From an uncultured Candidatus Saccharibacteria bacterium (GTDB lineage Bacteria > Patescibacteriota > Minisyncoccia > Phycocordibacterales > JACOZG01), in assembly GCA_964360815.1 (NCBI GenBank), contig CAYHYA010000001.1, positions 5,574-69,573 on the forward strand: 64,000 nucleotides of DNA, written 5' to 3'. Positions 3,107 through 35,258 of the stretch are shown here, piece by piece. Position numbers and translations under genes: made by a program. Under the pieces are notes generated by a model, which was not told the origin of the DNA, did no database searches, and worked only from the letters and a program-made list of their open reading frames with translations. The stretch's first letter is position 1. Each line of letters begins with the position of its first letter.

Positions 3107-5245
3107 TTAGTTCAAACCAATATATGGTGTGACAAACTCATCAAGGTTAGAAGAATAGACAATGTCGGTAGTGTCATCGGTGCTGGTATCATCCCAGTAG
3201 AAACCACCGAGCGACAAACGATACTGACCAGCGGCCCCAACAGTCGGCAAGATAGCCGTTGCCGTTAAGGTGAAGGTCTCGGTCTGACCGTCAATAATCT
3301 CGTAGAGACCAGCGGCATTAAGAGTCGTGTCGGAATTAACCAAGGTCATAGTAACGCCACCAGTGGTACCCGTACCAGCTCGATCGACAACACCTGAAGT
3401 CTTGGCCGCTGTTACACCGGAAGTCTTGGCGTCAACAAGCGACGACACATAGATATTGCCACCGAAAGCGGTAATGCTGTACTTAAGCGTGAAGGTACCT
3501 TGATCATTAGGATCAGTGGTACTACCTCCTTCAGCCCCAACAGGCATAGGGGCACTCACCAATTTAAGCTGAACTCCCTTACTGCGAAGCTGATTGGCAT
3601 CAGTAGAAACCGAACCGGTCATATCGGCATCAGCTAACTTCGTATTGGACTCATCGCGGATATCAGCCAAACCAGTGTTGTCGGTTTCGGTCTCACCTAG
3701 AACGACAGCGATAGTATCGCCCTCGGAAAGAAGATTGCCGGCAGTAGCGCTAACGGGATTAATGTCAGCCCGAATCACAACCGTAACCGTATCTCCGGCT
3801 GGGATAGTGAAGTCAACATCATCAAAGAGTACCAGCTCCGTCAGATTAGTGCTGTCATCAGTGCTAGCCAAGGTGTAAGAAGTCGTAGTATCTCCACCAT
3901 AAGTAGCAGAACCGTAGGACTGACCGTCAATGATCAATTCAATGGCCGGAGACATATCACCAGCAATCACATCATCAACATCAACAGCATCACCAGTAAT
4001 AGTAACCATGACACCTAACTTCTTGATCTCTAAGGCGGAATCGCCTTCCGCTTCAAGCGTAAAGGAAGCTAGTTCCACATCCTGTTTAGTATCAGTGGTG
4101 CTGATTTCAGCAATATGGAACTTGTTAATGGCATCATCGTCTTCGGTAATCTTAAACTCTGAATCAGCAGCAGACGCGAAACTCTTGAAGTTAAAGGTAC
4201 GAGTACCAGTGCCTGGATCCTCGGAAGTGGAATCACCCCGTCCATCAACATAGCGAACGCTAGTGATATCAGCTGTCCATGAATCGGGATCATCATCGCT
4301 GGAATCCAAGTTGCTGACTGCCGACACGGCAATCGTTAATTCGGCCGTTTCGCCAGCCTTAATGATTGCTCCATCGTCCAAAGCAATCGTCTTGGTCCAG
4401 TTGTTCTCATCAGTAAACCCAGTACTATCAACGCGACCAACTTCTTCGCCATCGAGCCAAACAGATACTTCAGTCGCATAATCCTCGAAGTCAGAGGTGG
4501 TATTTGTGCTCTCATTGAAGACAACGCGAACGGCCGTGAGTTCGAGATCAGAATTATTATCTGCCTCAACCTCAAGACCAATCACCGGAACATCATCTTC
4601 ATCCTCACCAACAGGCTCGTTAGTGAGATCAGACATTAGGGTGTAATTCTCAACAACTCCTGTGCTACCGGTCAAGCCGGTGTCTGGGGTTGTACCGCCA
4701 CCTGTGGACGGCATACAGTTGTTCGAGAGCAAATTGCCGTTCGGACAAGTGGTGCCAGTCTGCGCCGGCATACAGTTGTTCGAGAGCAAATTGCCGTTCG
4801 GACAAGTGTTGCTAGACGAACCAGGACCCGGATTTACCGGCGGATAAGTACCACCAGTCGTCGCCATGATGGCGTTGTAGGTGATATTACCGTAATAACC
4901 GACAGCCGGAGCAACTCCGTGGTCGCCCTGCCATTTGGCCAAAGCGGCCTTGGTCTGCGGACCGAATGTACCGGTCGCGCCAGCCGGAATGGCATAGCCC
5001 TGCGACATTAACCATTGTTGGAGTTTGGTTACCTCCATACCGCTATTACCAACTGTCAAAGGCGGCATCGGCACAATGTCTGCGGACATTGAACCACCAC
5101 CCTGCAAAGCACCGATTTGGGCAGTCAGTTGGGCAATTTGGGCCATTAATTGATCAACGGTCATCGTCTGGGCGCTAACCGCACCAGAGACACCGAAGAT
5201 CAAGGCCAACGCGGCCAAACCGAAAATAAATTTCTTAATACTCAT
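3107..5245 (-). CDS. Secreted cell-surface protein: signal peptide, peptidoglycan-binding (PG_binding_1-like) domain, tandem CPNGNLLSNNCMP repeats, long acidic Thr/Asp-rich region
   Basis: N-terminus MSIKKFIFGLAALALIFGVSGAVSAQ is a signal peptide. TKLQQWLMSQGYAIPAGATGTFGPQTKAALAKWQ resembles a PG-binding domain. A 57-bp tandem DNA repeat at about 4709..4820 encodes the Cys motif twice. Confidence 0.55.
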   Translation of the reverse strand: MSIKKFIFGLAALALIFGVSGAVSAQTMTVDQLMAQIAQLTAQIGALQGGGSMSADIVPMPPLTVGNSGMEVTKLQQWLMSQGYAIPAGATGTFGPQTKAALAKWQGDHGVAPAVGYYGNITYNAIMATTGGTYPPVNPGPGSSSNTCPNGNLLSNNCMPAQTGTTCPNGNLLSNNCMPSTGGGTTPDTGLTGSTGVVENYTLMSDLTNEPVGEDEDDVPVIGLEVEADNNSDLELTAVRVVFNESTNTTSDFEDYATEVSVWLDGEEVGRVDSTGFTDENNWTKTIALDDGAIIKAGETAELTIAVSAVSNLDSSDDDPDSWTADITSVRYVDGRGDSTSEDPGTGTRTFNFKSFASAADSEFKITEDDDAINKFHIAEISTTDTKQDVELASFTLEAEGDSALEIKKLGVMVTITGDAVDVDDVIAGDMSPAIELIIDGQSYGSATYGGDTTTSYTLASTDDSTNLTELVLFDDVDFTIPAGDTVTVVIRADINPVSATAGNLLSEGDTIAVVLGETETDNTGLADIRDESNTKLADADMTGSVSTDANQLRSKGVQLKLVSAPMPVGAEGGSTTDPNDQGTFTLKYSITAFGGNIYVSSLVDAKTSGVTAAKTSGVVDRAGTGTTGGVTMTLVNSDTTLNAAGLYEIIDGQTETFTLTATAILPTVGAAGQYRLSLGGFYWDDTSTDDTTDIVYSSNLDEFVTPYIGLN

Positions 5246-30445: not shown

Positions 30446-31180
30446 CTAGGCCGCTCCCGTTCCAAACTGTGATTGTTCCAGAACAAGAGTACCACAATCA
30501 CACGGACACCGACGACACTCCGGACAACCCGGAAAATATCTAGTTTCGATGGCCTGATTCAGATCAATTCTGATCAAGTTGGCCAGTGATAAGAGCCAAC
30601 TAATGACATCTGCACATTCAAGGGCGTAGTTCATTTCAAGATGATCAACCGACAAACCGGGAAAAATGTCGGCCCCACCGACAATGGCTCCCATCTCGCC
30701 AATTTCCATAAAAATACGGTTCAAGCAAACCGTCACTCCTCCAGATTGATGGTTTGCTAAGCCATAAATATTTTCCAGTGCCACCTGCGATTCACGCAGA
30801 GTGCGTCCATAAAGTCGACCGTTTTCACTATCAACACACCAATCTTTTCTATTGAAGCGCAGATCTCTTGGCGGACGATCCTTGGGACATTCACAAGGAC
30901 GCTTACCACAATAACTACACGCCGATCCAGACCACTTGAAGGCGAATGCCTCCGGCAAGGGTAGATCGTCAAAATAATTGGCGACCGCCATTAACCAGGC
31001 AAAAACATCGGCCAGACAATAAGCAGTGATACCGTGTTGATCTTTTCTCAGTGTCTCACCTAGTTGTCGACACGCAACAAGTAAACGAGTAAACCTCTTT
31101 TCCAGGGAAATAAAATAGTTGTTCCGTCGACCGTAGATACGACGAAAATGCGCCTGCCATTCAGCGAGAGTTCGATTCAC
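30446..31180 (-). CDS. Tandem MazG-like nucleoside-triphosphate pyrophosphohydrolase domains, each followed by a Cys cluster; candidate dimeric-dUTPase-type enzyme
   Basis: Two repeats with the MazG EExxE/D-like helices (LGETLRKDQ...CLADVFAWLMAVANYF and ECADVISWLLSLANLIRIDL). CSYCGKRPCEC and CPECRRCPCDC clusters are present. Confidence 0.4.
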   Translation of the reverse strand: MNRTLAEWQAHFRRIYGRRNNYFISLEKRFTRLLVACRQLGETLRKDQHGITAYCLADVFAWLMAVANYFDDLPLPEAFAFKWSGSACSYCGKRPCECPKDRPPRDLRFNRKDWCVDSENGRLYGRTLRESQVALENIYGLANHQSGGVTVCLNRIFMEIGEMGAIVGGADIFPGLSVDHLEMNYALECADVISWLLSLANLIRIDLNQAIETRYFPGCPECRRCPCDCGTLVLEQSQFGTGAA

Positions 31181-31270: not shown

Positions 31271-32569
31271 TTACTTCTTCTCCGCGATCGTCTGGCGGCC
31301 ACGACGGACGTCCCAGTCGTCCGGATCGAGATCGGAATAAAGTTTCAATTTAGGAAAGCGGCGAGCGAGAAAGTGGTGCATTCGGTGAGCCAGACGACGG
31401 AGCGTTGGATGAACCATTTTCCCCGAACGTAGTTCGGTCACATAAACCGCCGCCGGTAAGCCGTAAGTGACCCGGCCGGAGATGTTGAAACCCATCGCCA
31501 AATAATACTGCCGGAGTTCGGGCGGTGCTTTCAGTTTGGCCACGACTGATTTTTGATCACGGATTAGCTTTTCGGCTGTCCGCCGCGCTTCCATCGGCAA
31601 CTGGTCGAGATACCACTGATTGAAACCAAAACGAGGCGTCAAAAGCGGCATCCGGCAAACACCGTGGCGATGGCGTTGGAGATCGCGGAAAGAACCGAAA
31701 TCGAGCAGGAAATCAAACGTGCATTGGCCAAGCTCGCTGAAGAAATGGGGTAGATTGGTTTTACCTGGTCGTCTGGTTAAGAGATCGTGATAACGATCAA
31801 GTTCCGAATTTTTGATGTTGGTTTTAGCGTGCCAATCACCGGTGTAATTTTTCTCCAAATAATAGGTGCGGCGATCGCCAAGATACTGCCAATATTTTTC
31901 CTGTTCCGGATAGAGTTTGTGACCAAAACTGGACTGATACTTTTTCTGCAACTCCCCGTGAATCAGCTTCGCCACCGCCTGTACCTCGGGCAAGGGCCAG
32001 TGACGAAGCAGGGCGAGCTTGTCCCAGGCCTGACGAAGGTTGGTGTGCCAAGACAGTTGAGTAGTAATACCAGCTGGCAAAAAACCGCGTAAGCTGTCGA
32101 AGGTTCGGGCCTTGATCGCCCGTTCGTAAACCGGCTCGTCTTCCGCCGGCTGGCGCGGATATTTCAGCCGGAGATGTTGGGCGACAATCTCTTGGTTCTT
32201 GGTATAAAAATCTCGCCATTTTTCCAAAACTGATTTCGAAACGGTCGTTTCAAGCGGATCAATCATGGCTTGTTTGGATAAATCAATGTAGCGCGAGCTG
32301 GTTTCCTGGCCGGAATAAAGCGGCCAATCTTGAAGTGCCTTGGCCGCCAACATGGAAACGCCTTCGACGAAAAGTGTGGTCGAGCCACAGTCGGCGATGG
32401 AAGCGTGGCCGTAACCAACATAATATTTTTCCATGAACTTACCCGAACCGCTCTGGCGCACCTTCGCGACGTGCTGAACCACCGACTCGGCCGAGCGCGA
32501 ATAGAGCGCCTGCATCATCGCCGTGTCCTCCGGATTAAACTCGTCGTAGATGAAAATTTTCATGCTCAT
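31271..32569 (-). CDS. thyX: ThyX-like flavin-dependent thymidylate synthase, apparently a fused tandem duplication with complementary motif retention
   Basis: The N-half aligns to ThyX (MKIFIYDEF..., YSGQETSSRYIDLS corresponds to ASYNELSGRYSKLS) but lacks RHR. The C-half has FDFLLDFGSFRDLQRHRHG (ThyX RHR block) but lacks SxRY. Confidence 0.5.
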   Translation of the reverse strand: MSMKIFIYDEFNPEDTAMMQALYSRSAESVVQHVAKVRQSGSGKFMEKYYVGYGHASIADCGSTTLFVEGVSMLAAKALQDWPLYSGQETSSRYIDLSKQAMIDPLETTVSKSVLEKWRDFYTKNQEIVAQHLRLKYPRQPAEDEPVYERAIKARTFDSLRGFLPAGITTQLSWHTNLRQAWDKLALLRHWPLPEVQAVAKLIHGELQKKYQSSFGHKLYPEQEKYWQYLGDRRTYYLEKNYTGDWHAKTNIKNSELDRYHDLLTRRPGKTNLPHFFSELGQCTFDFLLDFGSFRDLQRHRHGVCRMPLLTPRFGFNQWYLDQLPMEARRTAEKLIRDQKSVVAKLKAPPELRQYYLAMGFNISGRVTYGLPAAVYVTELRSGKMVHPTLRRLAHRMHHFLARRFPKLKLYSDLDPDDWDVRRGRQTIAEKK

Positions 32570-32581
32570 CTCTTATTCTAA

Positions 32582-33601
32582 CTAGATCGAGCCAAAAGAC
32601 AAAGAACGCAAAAGATGCTGGCGTATTTTGTGTCCACGACAATGCTTTAGCACACCTAGATACGAAGTAAGATTGGCGGGAGTGATCTCGTCCCGATCCA
32701 ACCGCCGTAAAATGCGCCTTTTGGTCCGCGTTCGCAAAACTCGATAATGCGGCCGGGCGACGTACCCCAGATAATCAATTCCTTGGTGCAACTTACGAAT
32801 GATAATTTTGTCGGGATGCAAAGAAAGATTTAATTTGTTTTTCAAAAAATCAGAAATTGGCCAAATCAGGTTTTCTAAATAATCACGGCTTTGATGGACG
32901 ATGACAAAATCATCACAGTAACGCAGGTAATATCTGGCCTTAATTTCGTGTTTAATAAATTGATCAAGTTCGTTGAGATAAATGTTGGCAAAAAGCTGAC
33001 TGGTTACATTGCCCAGCGGTAAGCCACAACCAGGGATGATAGCGAAGCTCTCAACGACCGATCGAATTAGAGTGATAACACGGCTATCACCGATTACCTT
33101 TTCAATCAATGACAACAAGATAGCATGATCAATATTATCAAAAAACTTTTGAACATCACATTTTAAGGCGTAGCTTTGTGAATGATAATTACCACTGATC
33201 TTGCGAACAAAGGATTCTAGACGACTTACTCCACGATGCACTCCTTTGTTGAAGCGACAAGAATACGAGTCGTAAATAAAATGCCGATCAAAAAAATGGT
33301 ACAGTCCACGGAAAAGTGCTTGGTGTAGAACTCGGTCGAGCACCGGGGCCTTGTGGATATGACGTATCTTTGGGTCCCGAACGTAAAAAGATTGGTAGGA
33401 GGAGGGATGGTAAGCGTCGGAGACCAGATCAGCATGAAGTTTAAACAAATTATTTTCTAAATCGAACCCGAACTCCAAAACTTTGATTTTTTTGATTTTG
33501 CCGCGCTTGAATTCTCGCCAGGCATTGAGTAAATTAGACAGCGACACAACATGCTCCCACAACGACCAAGTAGACCCCCCCCCAACAGATTTCCTTGCCA
33601 A
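32582..33601 (-). CDS. Diversity-generating retroelement (DGR) reverse transcriptase
   Basis: RT motifs 1-7 with YCDD. Motif 4 reads LGNVTSQ, the DGR-specific [ILV]GxxxSQ that replaces QGxxxSP. 339 aa. The cognate TR and VR lie directly upstream. Confidence 0.8.
   Translation of the reverse strand: MARKSVGGGSTWSLWEHVVSLSNLLNAWREFKRGKIKKIKVLEFGFDLENNLFKLHADLVSDAYHPSSYQSFYVRDPKIRHIHKAPVLDRVLHQALFRGLYHFFDRHFIYDSYSCRFNKGVHRGVSRLESFVRKISGNYHSQSYALKCDVQKFFDNIDHAILLSLIEKVIGDSRVITLIRSVVESFAIIPGCGLPLGNVTSQLFANIYLNELDQFIKHEIKARYYLRYCDDFVIVHQSRDYLENLIWPISDFLKNKLNLSLHPDKIIIRKLHQGIDYLGYVARPHYRVLRTRTKRRILRRLDRDEITPANLTSYLGVLKHCRGHKIRQHLLRSLSFGSI
33575..33583. repeat. Homopolymeric C9 (G9 on the coding strand) inside codons 7-9 (GGG) of the DGR reverse transcriptase
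   Basis: Read directly: tagacccccccccaacag. The minus strand atggcaaggaaatctgttGGGGGGGGGtct encodes MARKSVGGGS. Confidence 0.8.
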
Positions 33602-33939
33602 TTGTTCATCAGTTAGGAGAATTATATAAGCATGTTTACCAAATTGGAAAGAAATTAAGTAAGGGCGACAAACTCGGCGTTTGGTCTAAAATAGAAATAG
33701 TGTGTTTGGAATGTCTTGAATTATCGATCACGGCCAGCTTGTTGCCATTAACATCAAAAACAGAGCCGCTTCGGCGATTAGGGTTAAAAATAGAAGTGAT
33801 GAAAAGGTTGATTAGGTTGTGTTGCGAAATTAAGATCATTGAAGATCGGGTTTATTTATGTTTAACTCAACCGTTACAGGAAATTTCCAAGATGACAGCT
33901 GGCTGGTACAAATACGCCAACCAAAAAGAGCGCCCTTAA
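33595..33939 (+). CDS. Possible Avd-like four-helix-bundle accessory protein (23S-rRNA-IVS family), encoded divergently from the RT
   Basis: ELYKHVYQIGKKLSKGDKLGVWSKIEIVCLECLELS resembles the IVS/Avd helix-1/2 pattern. The orientation is opposite to the TR and RT, which lowers confidence. Confidence 0.3.
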   Translation: MPIVHQLGELYKHVYQIGKKLSKGDKLGVWSKIEIVCLECLELSITASLLPLTSKTEPLRRLGLKIEVMKRLIRLCCEIKIIEDRVYLCLTQPLQEISKMTAGWYKYANQKERP

Positions 33940-33957
33940 GACGCCCCGTTTTGGTAA

Positions 33958-34076
33958 CACTACCTCACGAGTCCGACCATTCGGGTTGGCGTCGTCGCGA
34001 TTCCACCAATTGATCTTGAACTGTCTATCGTTCCAGTTGGCGTAGACGGCCTTGCCATCAGAGTTACGCGAACTCG
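33958..34076 (-). repeat. DGR template repeat (TR), 119 bp, Asn-codon (AAY) rich
   Basis: Aligns without gaps to VR 34352..34470. 13 of 15 differences fall at TR adenines (coding sense on the minus strand). The track's ORF 33874..34176 most likely just spans this non-coding TR. Confidence 0.8.
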
Positions 34077-34339
34077 CGTAGTATCCTTTCCCATCCATTC
34101 CACCGGCAATCTTAAAGTAAAATTGCCTGCGTTGATCCCGTGGTGTGGGGCAAAGTTTGCGGCCTGGTCTTATCAATCCTTACCGCCAGGAAAAGACACG
34201 CAGTGCTATTTAATCTTCTTGGCAAATCGTTATTCCGTGAACGGAACCGATTTATCAGCCGGGTTAAATTTTACAAATAAAAAAATCACCGCGCAACTCA
34301 ACAAAGAGACACGCGGTGATCTAGGATTAAAGGAAGAAG

Positions 34340-35143
34340 TTACGAGTTTAGCACTACCTCACGAGTCCGACCATCCGGGTGTGCGCCGTCGCGAAGCCAC
34401 CAACCGACCTTGAACTGTCTACCGTCCCAGTCGGCGCCGACGGCCCTGCCATCAGAGTAACGCGAACTCGTAATGGTCACGTTAATTAGGTCGAGATGAC
34501 CGCCCTCGATTTTTTGGTGGTGCAATGCTTCCAACAACATCCGCTCGCCAATGGTTGAGTATATAAGGCCACGTTGATCGAGTTGGTCCGGCGAAAGATT
34601 GGAGTATTCTTCACTTGGTTCCACCGCCCCTTCGGTCCAGAGAGCATAAACACTCTCTGGCCGAGGTTGGTTTATGGTAACGGCCTGATCGAGATTTTTC
34701 GTGTAACGAAAACACGGAAAAGCGACTTCGTTAACGCGGTAAATTTGATCGAGCGACAAGTTGGGGTCAACGACGAGTAGCGTTGGTTGCCGAAACCTAC
34801 CTGTCGGCAGGGTCGGCACGGTCAGTTTGTTCAAATCTATTCGTCGTTGGTGCTGATCAAGATAATATTGTTCCCACCACTCGAGATCGTTACCAATATT
34901 GACAGCATCGTCAGTCGCACCGATTAAGAAATTACCGACCCTTCTCTGCCATTCTCTTTTTTCCTTGACCAGTTTTTCGGCCTGATCAAAATCTATCGTT
35001 ATCGGCATCGCGTGAACCAAAGCACTGCAAATTTCCCTCGTTTGACCGAACGTCATCGGTTTCTTAACCACCGCTGGAACAGTACCGCTTTTACTCATGG
35101 TCAGTTTCCTTTCACTTAATTCAAAGACCCCGGCTAAAGGCAC
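34340..35143 (-). CDS. DGR target protein (variable protein); the C-terminal ~40 aa are encoded by the VR
   Basis: C-terminus ...SSRYSDGRAVGADWDGRQFKVGWWLRDGAHPDGRTREVVLNS compares with the TR-encoded SSRNSDGKAVYANWNDRQFKINWWNRDDANPNGRTREVV. No signal peptide was detected. Confidence 0.7.
   Translation of the reverse strand: MPLAGVFELSERKLTMSKSGTVPAVVKKPMTFGQTREICSALVHAMPITIDFDQAEKLVKEKREWQRRVGNFLIGATDDAVNIGNDLEWWEQYYLDQHQRRIDLNKLTVPTLPTGRFRQPTLLVVDPNLSLDQIYRVNEVAFPCFRYTKNLDQAVTINQPRPESVYALWTEGAVEPSEEYSNLSPDQLDQRGLIYSTIGERMLLEALHHQKIEGGHLDLINVTITSSRYSDGRAVGADWDGRQFKVGWWLRDGAHPDGRTREVVLNS
34352..34470 (-). repeat. DGR variable repeat (VR) at the 3' end of the target gene
   Basis: See the TR entry. 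The final ~21 nt (ggtcggactcgtgaggtagtg) are identical to the TR, including its adenines, which is consistent with an IMH-like unmutated end. Confidence 0.8.
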
Positions 35144-35258
35144 TCGTCACACGACAAGACCAAATTTTAGCACTTTTTTAATGATAGTAAATATAGATGG
35201 TTTTGTCAATAGGCAGGGTCAGTTATTCGTACTAGAATTCGGGGTGAAATAAACCATT

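Follow-up and report, generated by a model that had tools for sequence, protein, structure and literature searches.

The diversity-generating retroelement (DGR) of Bordetella phage BPP-1 (mtd-avd-TR-brt) is the mechanistic prototype of its kind, and DGRs of the candidate phyla radiation (CPR/Patescibacteria) were reportedly treated by Paul and colleagues in 2017. According to Wu et al. 2018 (PMC5758913), 90% of CPR DGRs have architecture B3, TR-(avd)-RT, and Patescibacteria have a DGR clade of their own (clade 2; Roux et al. 2021, PMC8144416). The mechanistic knowledge found so far concerns elements of another layout than those of this clade. In BPP-1, the template repeat (TR) is followed on its 3' side, before brt, by a structured RNA (the spacer, Rfam RT-10 motif; PMC5737381, PMC8867640).

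The locus described here is located within a 64-kb stretch of DNA that was analysed as a whole (the window). Its cassette order is target with variable repeat (VR), TR, avd on the opposite strand and reverse transcriptase (RT); with a reverse-strand avd separating TR from RT, and a target that precedes them in the orientation of RT, it corresponds to type B3 as defined in PMC5758913 (Table 1). CPR B3 DGRs have the same gene order and orientation and likewise carry VR at the C-terminus of a small protein without annotated domain, in a chromosomal housekeeping region. The element is in all probability a genuine DGR of the ordinary CPR/Patescibacteria type with architecture B3. The best explanation of the locus as a whole, which takes this identity together with the TR-RNA, cDNA and VR-replacement mechanism proposed below, is considered probable. 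The element adds to an already known kind of DGR and shows no difference in kind from CPR B3 elements; as a single instance it matters little, since it is one more DGR in a lineage known to be rich in them. A sequence-only reading had proposed an RT, TR, VR and target gene with adenine-specific mutagenic homing. All the features that it named were found where it had placed them, and every test run agrees with this identification.

Table 1. Features of the DGR locus (positions in the window; strand relative to the window as read).
Feature	Position	Strand	Remarks
DGR RT	32582..33601	-	339 aa from in-frame TTG; Pfam RVT_1 E=7e-21
G9 tract (C9 on avd strand)	33575..33583	-	between 5' ends of avd and RT
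avd (accessory variability determinant)	33595..33939	+	114 aa from TTG; opposite strand to TR and RT
TATAAT box, candidate RT promoter	33621..33626	-	11 nt upstream of ATG 33609; TTTCCA-18-TATAAT match
A-tract/stem/T-tract hairpin	33920..33955	-	immediately 3' of TR, overlaps 3' end of convergent avd; dG -22.9, z=-2.6
TR (template repeat)	33955-34076	-	gapless alignment with VR
TR-leader, conserved structured RNA	34080..34261	-	directly 5' of TR, ~180 nt; covariation
TR-leader P1	34258-34261 with 34220-34223	-	covariation model
TR-leader P2	34248-34253 with 34224-34229	-	covariation model
TR-leader P3	34242-34246 with 34233-34237	-	covariation model
TR-leader P4	34188-34199 with 34081-34092	-	double changes in 11/12 pairs
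TR-leader P5	34119-34127 with 34105-34113	-	double changes in 9/9 pairs
-10-like box TAAAAT	34268-34273	-	alignment A6; TATAAT or TATACT in relatives; ~7 nt before structured RNA
12-bp hairpin + U7 (34276-34282)	34283..34322	-	~27 nt past VR end, 18 nt past stop; dG -23.8, z=-6.2
Target gene	34340..35098	-	252 aa + stop; N-terminal helical region ~17-83; C-terminal C-type-lectin/FGE-like domain ~105-250
VR (variable repeat)	34349-34470	-	codons ~210-250 of target
Promoter-like site TTGACA-17-TATCAT, 11/12	35181..35209	-	consensus match only; upstream of target

Several characteristics are shared with BPP-1: an RT with an I/LGxxxSQ motif, an Avd accessory protein, adenine-specific transfer from TR to VR, TR codons rich in AAY, a lectin-fold variable domain (here predicted), and an identical 3' segment with a hairpin downstream of VR. 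However, BPP-1 has its avd in the same orientation as TR and brt, whereas avd is antisense here, and the BPP-1 target is a phage tail fibre, whereas the present one is a chromosomal protein of 252 aa without signal peptide.

The central evidence is the relationship between TR and VR. The gapless repeat recognised in the sequence-only reading stands, although its length is 122 nt and not 119; recounting within those 119 nt gives 16 differences with 14 at TR adenines, in place of the 15 and 13 first reported, and the full 122 nt contain 17 differences, again with 14 at A. Given 32 A among the 122 TR bases, the probability that at least 14 of 17 differences fall at A is 2.2e-7. The codon changes AAC>TAC (N214Y), GAT>GGT and GAC>GGC had been overlooked. 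The three remaining differences are T>C at 34351, a C>A at 34382 that turns GCC into GCA, and a T>G at 34438 within TAC>GGC. They may reflect some drift and count to that extent against the preferred reading, but they are not unusual: 2-3 non-adenine differences in 16-17 are inside the range of the relatives, in which pooled non-A and A differences number 11 vs 132 and 23 vs 257 in two groups. The identical stretch at the 3' end of VR and TR measures 23 nt (34352-34374) rather than 21 and is followed by divergence; a GC-only 14-mer of the BPP-1 type is not present in it. Adenines of TR occupy codon positions 1-2 in 29 cases out of 32 and include seven AAY codons, and about 10^17.5 protein variants are possible. 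An adenine-masked scan, a check that had been proposed at the outset, revealed no third copy of TR/VR in the 64-kb window.

The same bias is found in related loci. In 56 of them the great majority of TR/VR mismatches fall at A, and the individual counts of differences at A are 12/14 in one relative (L004) and 16/19 in another (L001). In one RT cluster (P0085), seven groundwater contigs carry two VR haplotypes differing at 19 columns, 19/19 of which correspond to TR adenines, and TR, avd and RT are invariant among them. These data are interpreted as natural DGR activity in this lineage.

The 339-aa RT and its LGNVTSQ motif, both noted earlier, were confirmed. The protein contains LPLGNVTSQLFANIY, and the motif-4 signature, at residues 196-202, fits [LIV]GxxxSQ; the NCBI call is shorter, with 326 aa from the TTG at 33562. 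Its best solved relative is 8ub7 (E=2e-40), which we take to be the Bordetella phage bRT, the entry being labelled only "Reverse transcriptase". The sequence IGSLTSQ of 8ub7 is aligned to LGNVTSQ, and a group II RT comes next among solved structures, at 5.5e-22. More than 6600 RT homologues were found, the named ones all from Patescibacteria, as are the nearest relatives (46-64% identity).

A full-length Avd is present between TR and RT: the product covers positions 1-104 of the 104 in the NCBIfam profile DivGenRetAVD (E=4.6e-11) and also matches Pfam bAvd (E=5e-7) over its full length. A point against it is that the Avd scores stay under the curated cut-offs (30.6 vs 40 bits and 43 vs 80 bits). 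The earlier observation that this reading frame is divergently oriented is correct, but the orientation is no anomaly, since it is that of 90% of CPR DGRs (PMC5758913) and since all of the relatives in which an avd could be detected (70/70) have it in this place and on this strand. Indeed, most of the points that had been listed as unusual are ordinary for CPR DGRs.

The arrangement of RNA features around TR differs from that of BPP-1, with a terminator hairpin 3' of TR and a covarying structured RNA 5' of it. No RT-10-like motif is found between TR and RT, an interval that is occupied by the antisense avd. In the leader, covariation is strong: 86.6% of cells are paired vs 38-51% in slid controls, and the covariation score is 0.64 vs at most 0.19 in controls, a value reached by 0/500 shuffles. 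A covariance model (R1) has a single match in the window (114 bits) and matches in 53 of 89 sources, and these end 0-15 nt before TR in every case compared with TR coordinates. No Rfam family matches the leader or reaches the gathering score anywhere in the window; at E<=1, only two chance matches, on the terminator, were obtained between 33850 and 34400.

The -10-like box that precedes the leader could be the promoter of a separate TR transcript. Immediately 3' of TR, where the sequence-only reading had proposed to look for a hairpin, one was found that resembles a bidirectional terminator, and a strong hairpin is present no more than 55 nt from the TR end in 52 of 56 relatives (median z=-4.3). 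The hairpin that follows the target gene is its predicted terminator and is also a candidate for the DGR inverted repeat downstream of the IMH; a comparable post-target hairpin (z<-2) occurs in 36 of the 56. Conservation is what suggests these transcription units and promoters, as well as a role for the leader RNA. The leader RNA, the bidirectional terminator hairpin and a poly-G tract (see below) represent, as judged from the related sequences, three lineage-wide features, and the accessible literature searched, the CPR DGR survey included, contains no description of them. Together, the window and its relatives define three testable CPR parts, an RNA of ~180 nt abutting TR, a bidirectional terminator and a strictly placed poly-G:C tract, which make the mechanism of CPR DGRs approachable by reconstitution.

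In the mechanism proposed, TR would be transcribed alone, from the -10 box through the 180-nt structured leader and TR to the terminator. The RT, with Avd, would bind this leader-TR RNA, copy TR into cDNA and misincorporate opposite adenines. The cDNA would then replace VR, with a 3' boundary provided by the 23-nt identical segment and aided by the hairpin after the stop. The ligand-binding face of the target could in this way take as many as about 10^17 forms.

The G9 tract, to which attention had already been drawn, is real and lineage-wide: 56 of 80 related loci have a G7-G12 tract where avd and RT meet, and only two other G/C runs of at least 7 occur in 422 kb. Both the avd TTG and the RT core are found 12 nt downstream of the G9 tract, and because of its length a conserved upstream ATG is not in the frame of the RT body. 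This ATG (33609) opens MNNWQGNLLGGG, colinear with the N-termini of relatives, and a G10 tract would restore its frame. Since the upstream ATGs are not in frame, RT (33601, 33562) and Avd (33595) are left with TTG starts only. The upstream ATG (MNNWQ...) is a possible rather than a proven start of RT: the Avd codons TTG CCA ATT GTT CAT, of which it is the reverse complement, account for its conservation, and its frame relative to the RT core across relatives (6:7:10) is random, as expected if it is merely the reverse complement of an Avd His codon and not a start. The candidate RT promoter lies within the 5' coding region of avd, and similar boxes are present in the sequences of several relatives; since these bases also code for the conserved (L/I)YK of Avd, conservation of this box does not constitute independent evidence.

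Other explanations of the tract were also rejected. A selected GGG peptide motif in RT does not fit the codon usage, GGG representing 17.7% of Gly codons in RT bodies and almost always all three of those in the tract; moreover, in distant relatives the in-frame ATG downstream of the tract would leave it outside the RT reading frame. Nor does the tract appear to be a general Shine-Dalgarno mimic, since the next start is ~12-15 nt away in some distal loci and many proximal loci are without a downstream start. Like the poly-G contingency loci of Campylobacter and Neisseria (PMC4965091, PMC5084427), which also have a G8-G12 run at the 5' end of coding regions, the related loci differ in reading frame between lineages. 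Unlike in these, the tract is flanked by two genes in head-to-head orientation, and its coding role is putative. In 22 contigs retrieved without length bias, no change of tract length within a lineage was observed in the consensus sequences, in which minority variants are invisible; the difference in length among close genomes or samples that characterises phase-variable loci is accordingly not seen at the consensus level.

The tract is central to the main alternative, which accepts the locus as a real DGR but regards this copy as silent, either recently inactivated or OFF, with G9 separating the ATGs of RT and Avd from their frames and VR frozen. This is a minority reading, unlikely but with some substance. 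With G10, RT would read MNNWQGNLLGGGSTWSLWEHV, colinear with its closest homologue P0005 (MNNGQRSRAGGGANWSFWSHV). The same VR and G9 recur in another assembly of this organism (L089, GCA_038063275.1), which is identical over 4792 nt save one SNP in RT. In the P0042/P0043 lineage, where a G8 tract (20/20 contigs) likewise leaves the upstream ATG out of frame, VR is invariant wherever covered (about 15 of the 20 contigs, many of which may be re-assemblies of the same samples), and the P0085 lineage, in which VR varies at adenines, is in frame. Finally, 11 of 58 relatives have no in-frame ATG, GTG or TTG for RT. Against this, the in-frame TTGs of RT and Avd keep all conserved domains, and the frame of the upstream ATG is random across relatives. 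The out-of-frame loci are not decaying, since their TR/VR mismatches are as clean as those of in-frame loci (8.2% vs 7.7% non-A), and the in-frame P0057 lineage is likewise without VR variation. A link between tract phase and DGR activity was not retained, the lineages being too few (one out of frame with invariant VR, one in frame and variable, one in frame and invariant).

The notion that the locus is not a DGR, but a 122-nt repeat created by partial gene duplication or gene conversion beside an unrelated RT (retron, group II or defence), is effectively refuted and extremely improbable: although group II RT/maturase scores best for the RT among NCBIfam families (138 bits, well short of the 300-bit cut-off) and some database sources name homologues "retron-type", it is contradicted by the adenine bias (P=2e-7), the same layout and bias in dozens of independent loci, the presence of Avd, the E-value of 8ub7, which is 18 orders of magnitude better than that of group II RT, and an RT that approaches the cut-off of no retron or Drt family in NCBIfam.

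An ordinary, genuine DGR is the preferred reading. A more speculative extension, which we regard as doubtful, is that hypermutation in the Patescibacteria DGR lineage, this copy included, might be gated and templated in a manner unlike that of Bordetella: slippage at the G:C tract shared by the 5' ends of avd and RT would control both genes, the template would be a separate small RNA with an RT-recruiting domain 5' of TR, and snap-back of the terminator hairpin beside the TR end could prime cDNA synthesis. If such gating were true, slippage at the DNA or RNA level would make mutagenesis stochastic or heritably switchable.

VR encodes the last ~40 residues of the target. Homologues and the NCBI call place the start of this protein at ATG 35098 instead of the GTG at 35143 favoured earlier. 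Its last ~120 residues are predicted to adopt a C-type-lectin/FGE fold: in a fold check suggested by the sequence-only reading, the C-terminus models as CLec/FGE-like and VR lies within that domain. A relevant Pfam match is found in 0/56 family members (no FGE-sulfatase, DUF1566 or similar), and no PDB sequence matched the target profile with an E-value below 0.25. Sequence similarity of the target to the variable proteins TvpA (2y3c), Mtd (1yu0) and TaqVP (5vf4) was detected neither by Pfam nor by this profile search; the N-terminal ~100 residues of the target, a small helical region, distinguish it further from them. In comparison with C-type-lectin/FGE-fold DGR variable proteins, this member is without lipoprotein or secretion signal, and the protein is probably cytoplasmic or peripherally attached; a hydrophobic N-terminal helix is present in 16 of 56 family members.

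The description of the target as leaderless is correct for this protein if it refers to the lack of a signal peptide. It does not hold for the mRNA, which is probably not leaderless: a promoter-like site ~75 nt before the ATG implies a 5' UTR of ~75 nt, and a Shine-Dalgarno-like run, AAAGGAAA, is visible in the sequence.

The position of the element between thyX and dcd had been considered unusual. A functional link with nucleotide metabolism was rejected, since related cassettes sit in different contexts, adjoining HicAB/S14, HisRS/peptidase M16 or purF and an efflux-pump gene.

Although an exact-protein look-up gave no match and a word-indexed search only 3 proteins, the target is not very rare: an exhaustive profile search revealed at least 1125 clusters at 50% identity, with unannotated members of ~245 aa. 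A member of this family is located directly upstream of RT, on the same strand, at 27 of 85 RT loci. Being large and unannotated, with a predicted lectin-fold C-terminus, the family merits definition. One stand-alone member is found near thyA-tmk-dut.

The element is a diversity-generating retroelement (DGR), ordinary for the known CPR (Patescibacteria) lineage to which it belongs; the value that the case adds lies in lineage-level features, which appear to be undescribed, and not in the instance itself. The DGR call of the sequence-only reading was correct: the template repeat (TR) and the variable repeat (VR) differ at 17 positions, 14 of them at TR adenines, and are accompanied by a reverse transcriptase (RT) with the motif LGNVTSQ and by an avd gene. 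That reading had recognised the repeat, but its length of 119 nt was too short and its counts were slightly off (15 differences, 13 at adenines, where this span holds 16 and 14); the identical 3' stretch of TR and VR measures 23 nt, not 21 nt. With 32 A among the 122 bases of TR, the adenine bias would arise by chance with a probability of 2.2e-7. The three non-adenine differences (T>G at 34438, C>A at 34382 and T>C at 34351) are within the range of relatives, although such differences had been read as a hint of drift or decay. Read in the target frame, TR has 29 of its 32 adenines at the first or second position of a codon; with seven AAY codons and 21 codons open to recoding, ~10^17.5 variants are possible. 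A scan of the 64-kb window for additional VR copies, a check proposed earlier, found no third TR/VR copy.

Features of the DGR cassette in the window
Feature	Coordinates	Strand	Remarks
G9 tract	33575-33583		between head-to-head 5' ends of avd and RT; same junction in related loci L004, L008 and most of L009-L088
RT	32582-33601	minus	match to Pfam RVT_1
avd	33595-33939	plus	NCBIfam DivGenRetAVD (E=4.6e-11) and Pfam bAvd
Hairpin 3' of TR	33920-33955		directly 3' of TR; A-tract, stem, T-tract; overlaps avd 3' end
TR	33955-34076	minus	122-nt gapless direct repeat with VR
Leader RNA	34080-34261	minus	~180 nt, directly 5' of TR; covariance model (R1) match 114 bits
VR	34349-34470	minus	122-nt gapless direct repeat with TR
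Target gene	start ATG 35098	minus	252 aa; start as in homologues and NCBI record

The best solved relative of the RT is 8ub7 (E=2e-40), which appears in the search listing as plain "Reverse transcriptase" and which we take to be the Bordetella phage DGR RT (bRT); its IGSLTSQ aligns with LGNVTSQ. The next is a group II RT at E=5.5e-22. The avd matches span the whole of both profiles, with both scores under the curated cut-offs. RT homologues number more than 6600, including a 483-aa protein (P0070) with an extra Pfam PF03167 (uracil-DNA glycosylase superfamily) domain, which would make it a fusion of a DGR-type RT with a UDG-like domain.

In a comparison set of 80 related species loci, avd is antisense to and directly upstream of RT in all 70 with a detectable avd, and TR/VR mismatches fall overwhelmingly at A across 56 loci. 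The divergent avd, previously listed as unusual, is thus ordinary for CPR: the window and its relatives have the B3 layout TR-(avd)-RT, reported for 90% of CPR DGRs (Wu et al. 2018, PMC5758913). The thyX..dcd context, also singled out, is not conserved among related cassettes. The adjacent ThyX (31271-32569, minus strand) is unusually long (432 aa), the Thy1 profile covering only residues 18-210, and a 244-aa ORF at 30446-31180 (minus strand) carries two Cys-rich CxxC...CxC motifs without a Pfam or NCBIfam match. The closest cassette (L004) has a target 56% identical to that of the window, the same layout and 12 of 14 TR/VR differences at A. The Candidatus Vogelbacteria locus L001 (6001-7335, GCA_016181425.1) is a decayed cassette that keeps target, VR, TR (with A as the site of 16 of 19 differences), leader RNA and a 40-aa C-terminal remnant of avd; the RT is lost, and a peptidase M16 gene then follows. 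At another related locus (L008, 4614-4737 versus 5045-5167), VR has a 1-nt indel relative to TR and the last ~20 target codons are frame-shifted.

Although uncharacterised, the target family is a large one. A word-indexed search returned only two other target clusters, and an exhaustive profile search 1125 clusters at E<=1e-3, nearly all of 230-260 aa, whose named members are Patescibacteria, Wolfebacteria and Vogelbacteria. The adjacent target belongs to this family in 27 of 85 loci. Within 4 kb of two full-length members (L005 4001-4732 and L006 4001-4756) there is neither TR nor avd nor RT; these two could be either remote targets or paralogues without diversification. The L006 copy has thyA-tmk-dut nearby, echoing the thyX/dcd neighbours in the window. 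The target of the window has no match in Pfam, NCBIfam or PDB sequences; its structure was modelled with a 56-sequence alignment (pLDDT 90.5). The gene had earlier been called leaderless; its mRNA probably is not, because a promoter-like TTGACA-17-TATCAT lies ~75 nt upstream of the ATG. No segment of the protein is hydrophobic (maximum KD19 0.73), and the earlier statement that it lacks a signal peptide holds for it. Across the family localisation may nevertheless vary, since a hydrophobic N-terminal helix is present in 16 of 56 members.

Among relatives the 272-nt interval from VR to TR is conserved. The terminator of the target (12-bp stem and U7, z=-6.2) is followed by a conserved -10-like box and then by the leader RNA, an element with five helices. 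In the alignment of this leader the share of paired cells is 86.6%, as opposed to 38-51% in slid controls; the covariation score is 0.64 against <=0.19, and none of 500 shuffles attains the observed value. The long-range helix P4 (12 bp, with double changes in 11 of 12 pairs) closes the domain 4 nt before TR. R1 has a single match in the window and matches in 53 of 89 sources, some outside the training set; all those compared with TR coordinates end 0-15 nt before TR, and none occurs at DGR-less homologues of the target. The leader lies at 970-1134 in L004 and at 6838-7015 in L001, where it is kept despite the loss of the RT. It matches no Rfam 15 family, and so none of the RT-associated motifs that Weinberg et al. 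described. The structured RNA of BPP-1 is located 3' of TR (PMC5737381, PMC8867640), whereas that of the window is located 5'.

A hairpin downstream of TR had been suggested as a check, and a strong one is present in 52 of 56 loci (median z=-4.3), usually as A-tract, stem and T-tract and common to the convergent avd. It is probably a bidirectional terminator, and with such a geometry the 3' end of the RNA could snap back next to the end of TR. In the mechanism that we propose, a separate TR RNA consisting of leader, TR and terminator would be made and recognised by RT with Avd; cDNA synthesis through TR, with misincorporation opposite adenines, would yield a cDNA that homes to VR. Through the pairing of its A- and U-tracts, the terminator would set the RNA 3' end beside the TR end, as a possible primer.

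The G9 tract, noted earlier as slippage-prone, is real and more interesting than was stated: a G7-G12 homopolymer occupies the avd/RT junction in 56 of the 80 related Patescibacteria DGR loci. On the RT strand of all 80 loci (422 kb) there are 58 G-runs of at least 7 nt, 56 of them at the junction and mostly of 9 or 10 nt, with no C-run of at least 7 nt and no A or T run above 8 nt. The distance of the tract from the conserved (L)P(I/V)(I/V)H start of Avd is tightly fixed, at 12-27 nt in nearly all loci; from the RT core the tract lies 11-79 nt away. RT gene calls of relatives begin MN(N/Q)(R/W)Q....GGG; in the window the same N-terminal peptide, MNNWQGNLLGGG, opens out of frame at ATG 33609, which G10 instead of G9 would put in frame. 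As an RT start this upstream ATG seems ambiguous, because it is the reverse complement of the His codon of Avd, it falls in a random frame with respect to the RT core across relatives (6:7:10), and in the rest of these RT genes GGG accounts for a mere 17.7% of Gly codons. The homopolymer is, by this low GGG usage, conserved at the nucleotide level. A canonical in-frame start is absent for RT in 11 of 58 loci and for Avd in 13 of 43; TR/VR pairs are no less clean at out-of-frame than at in-frame loci, which show no sign of decay in either case. Tract length is stable at the consensus level (G8 in 20/20 contigs of one lineage, G9 in 2/2 here). The tract may make expression depend on slippage, mediate classical phase variation, serve as part of a promoter or RBS, or act at the RNA level; no mention of it was found in the DGR literature searched.

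A second assembly of the same organism (L089) differs from the window by one SNP in 4792 nt, with VR and G9 unchanged, and the consensus of the two gives no evidence of ongoing VR variation in this copy. Seven groundwater contigs (L100-L106; VR at L100 830-952) carry an RT of cluster P0085, 55% identical to that of the window. Two VR haplotypes occur among these samples, differing at 19 columns, 19/19 at TR adenines, with no change in TR, avd or RT; judged from such sequences, the DGR lineage is active in nature. The divergence of L106 upstream of VR may stem from two sequences having been joined at the repeat during assembly. Among contigs with RTs of a further cluster, P0057 (L107-L115), the four that span VR are identical and 5/9 end at VR or within ~60 nt of it, as assemblies would be expected to do where VR is heterogeneous or where they meet the TR/VR repeat.
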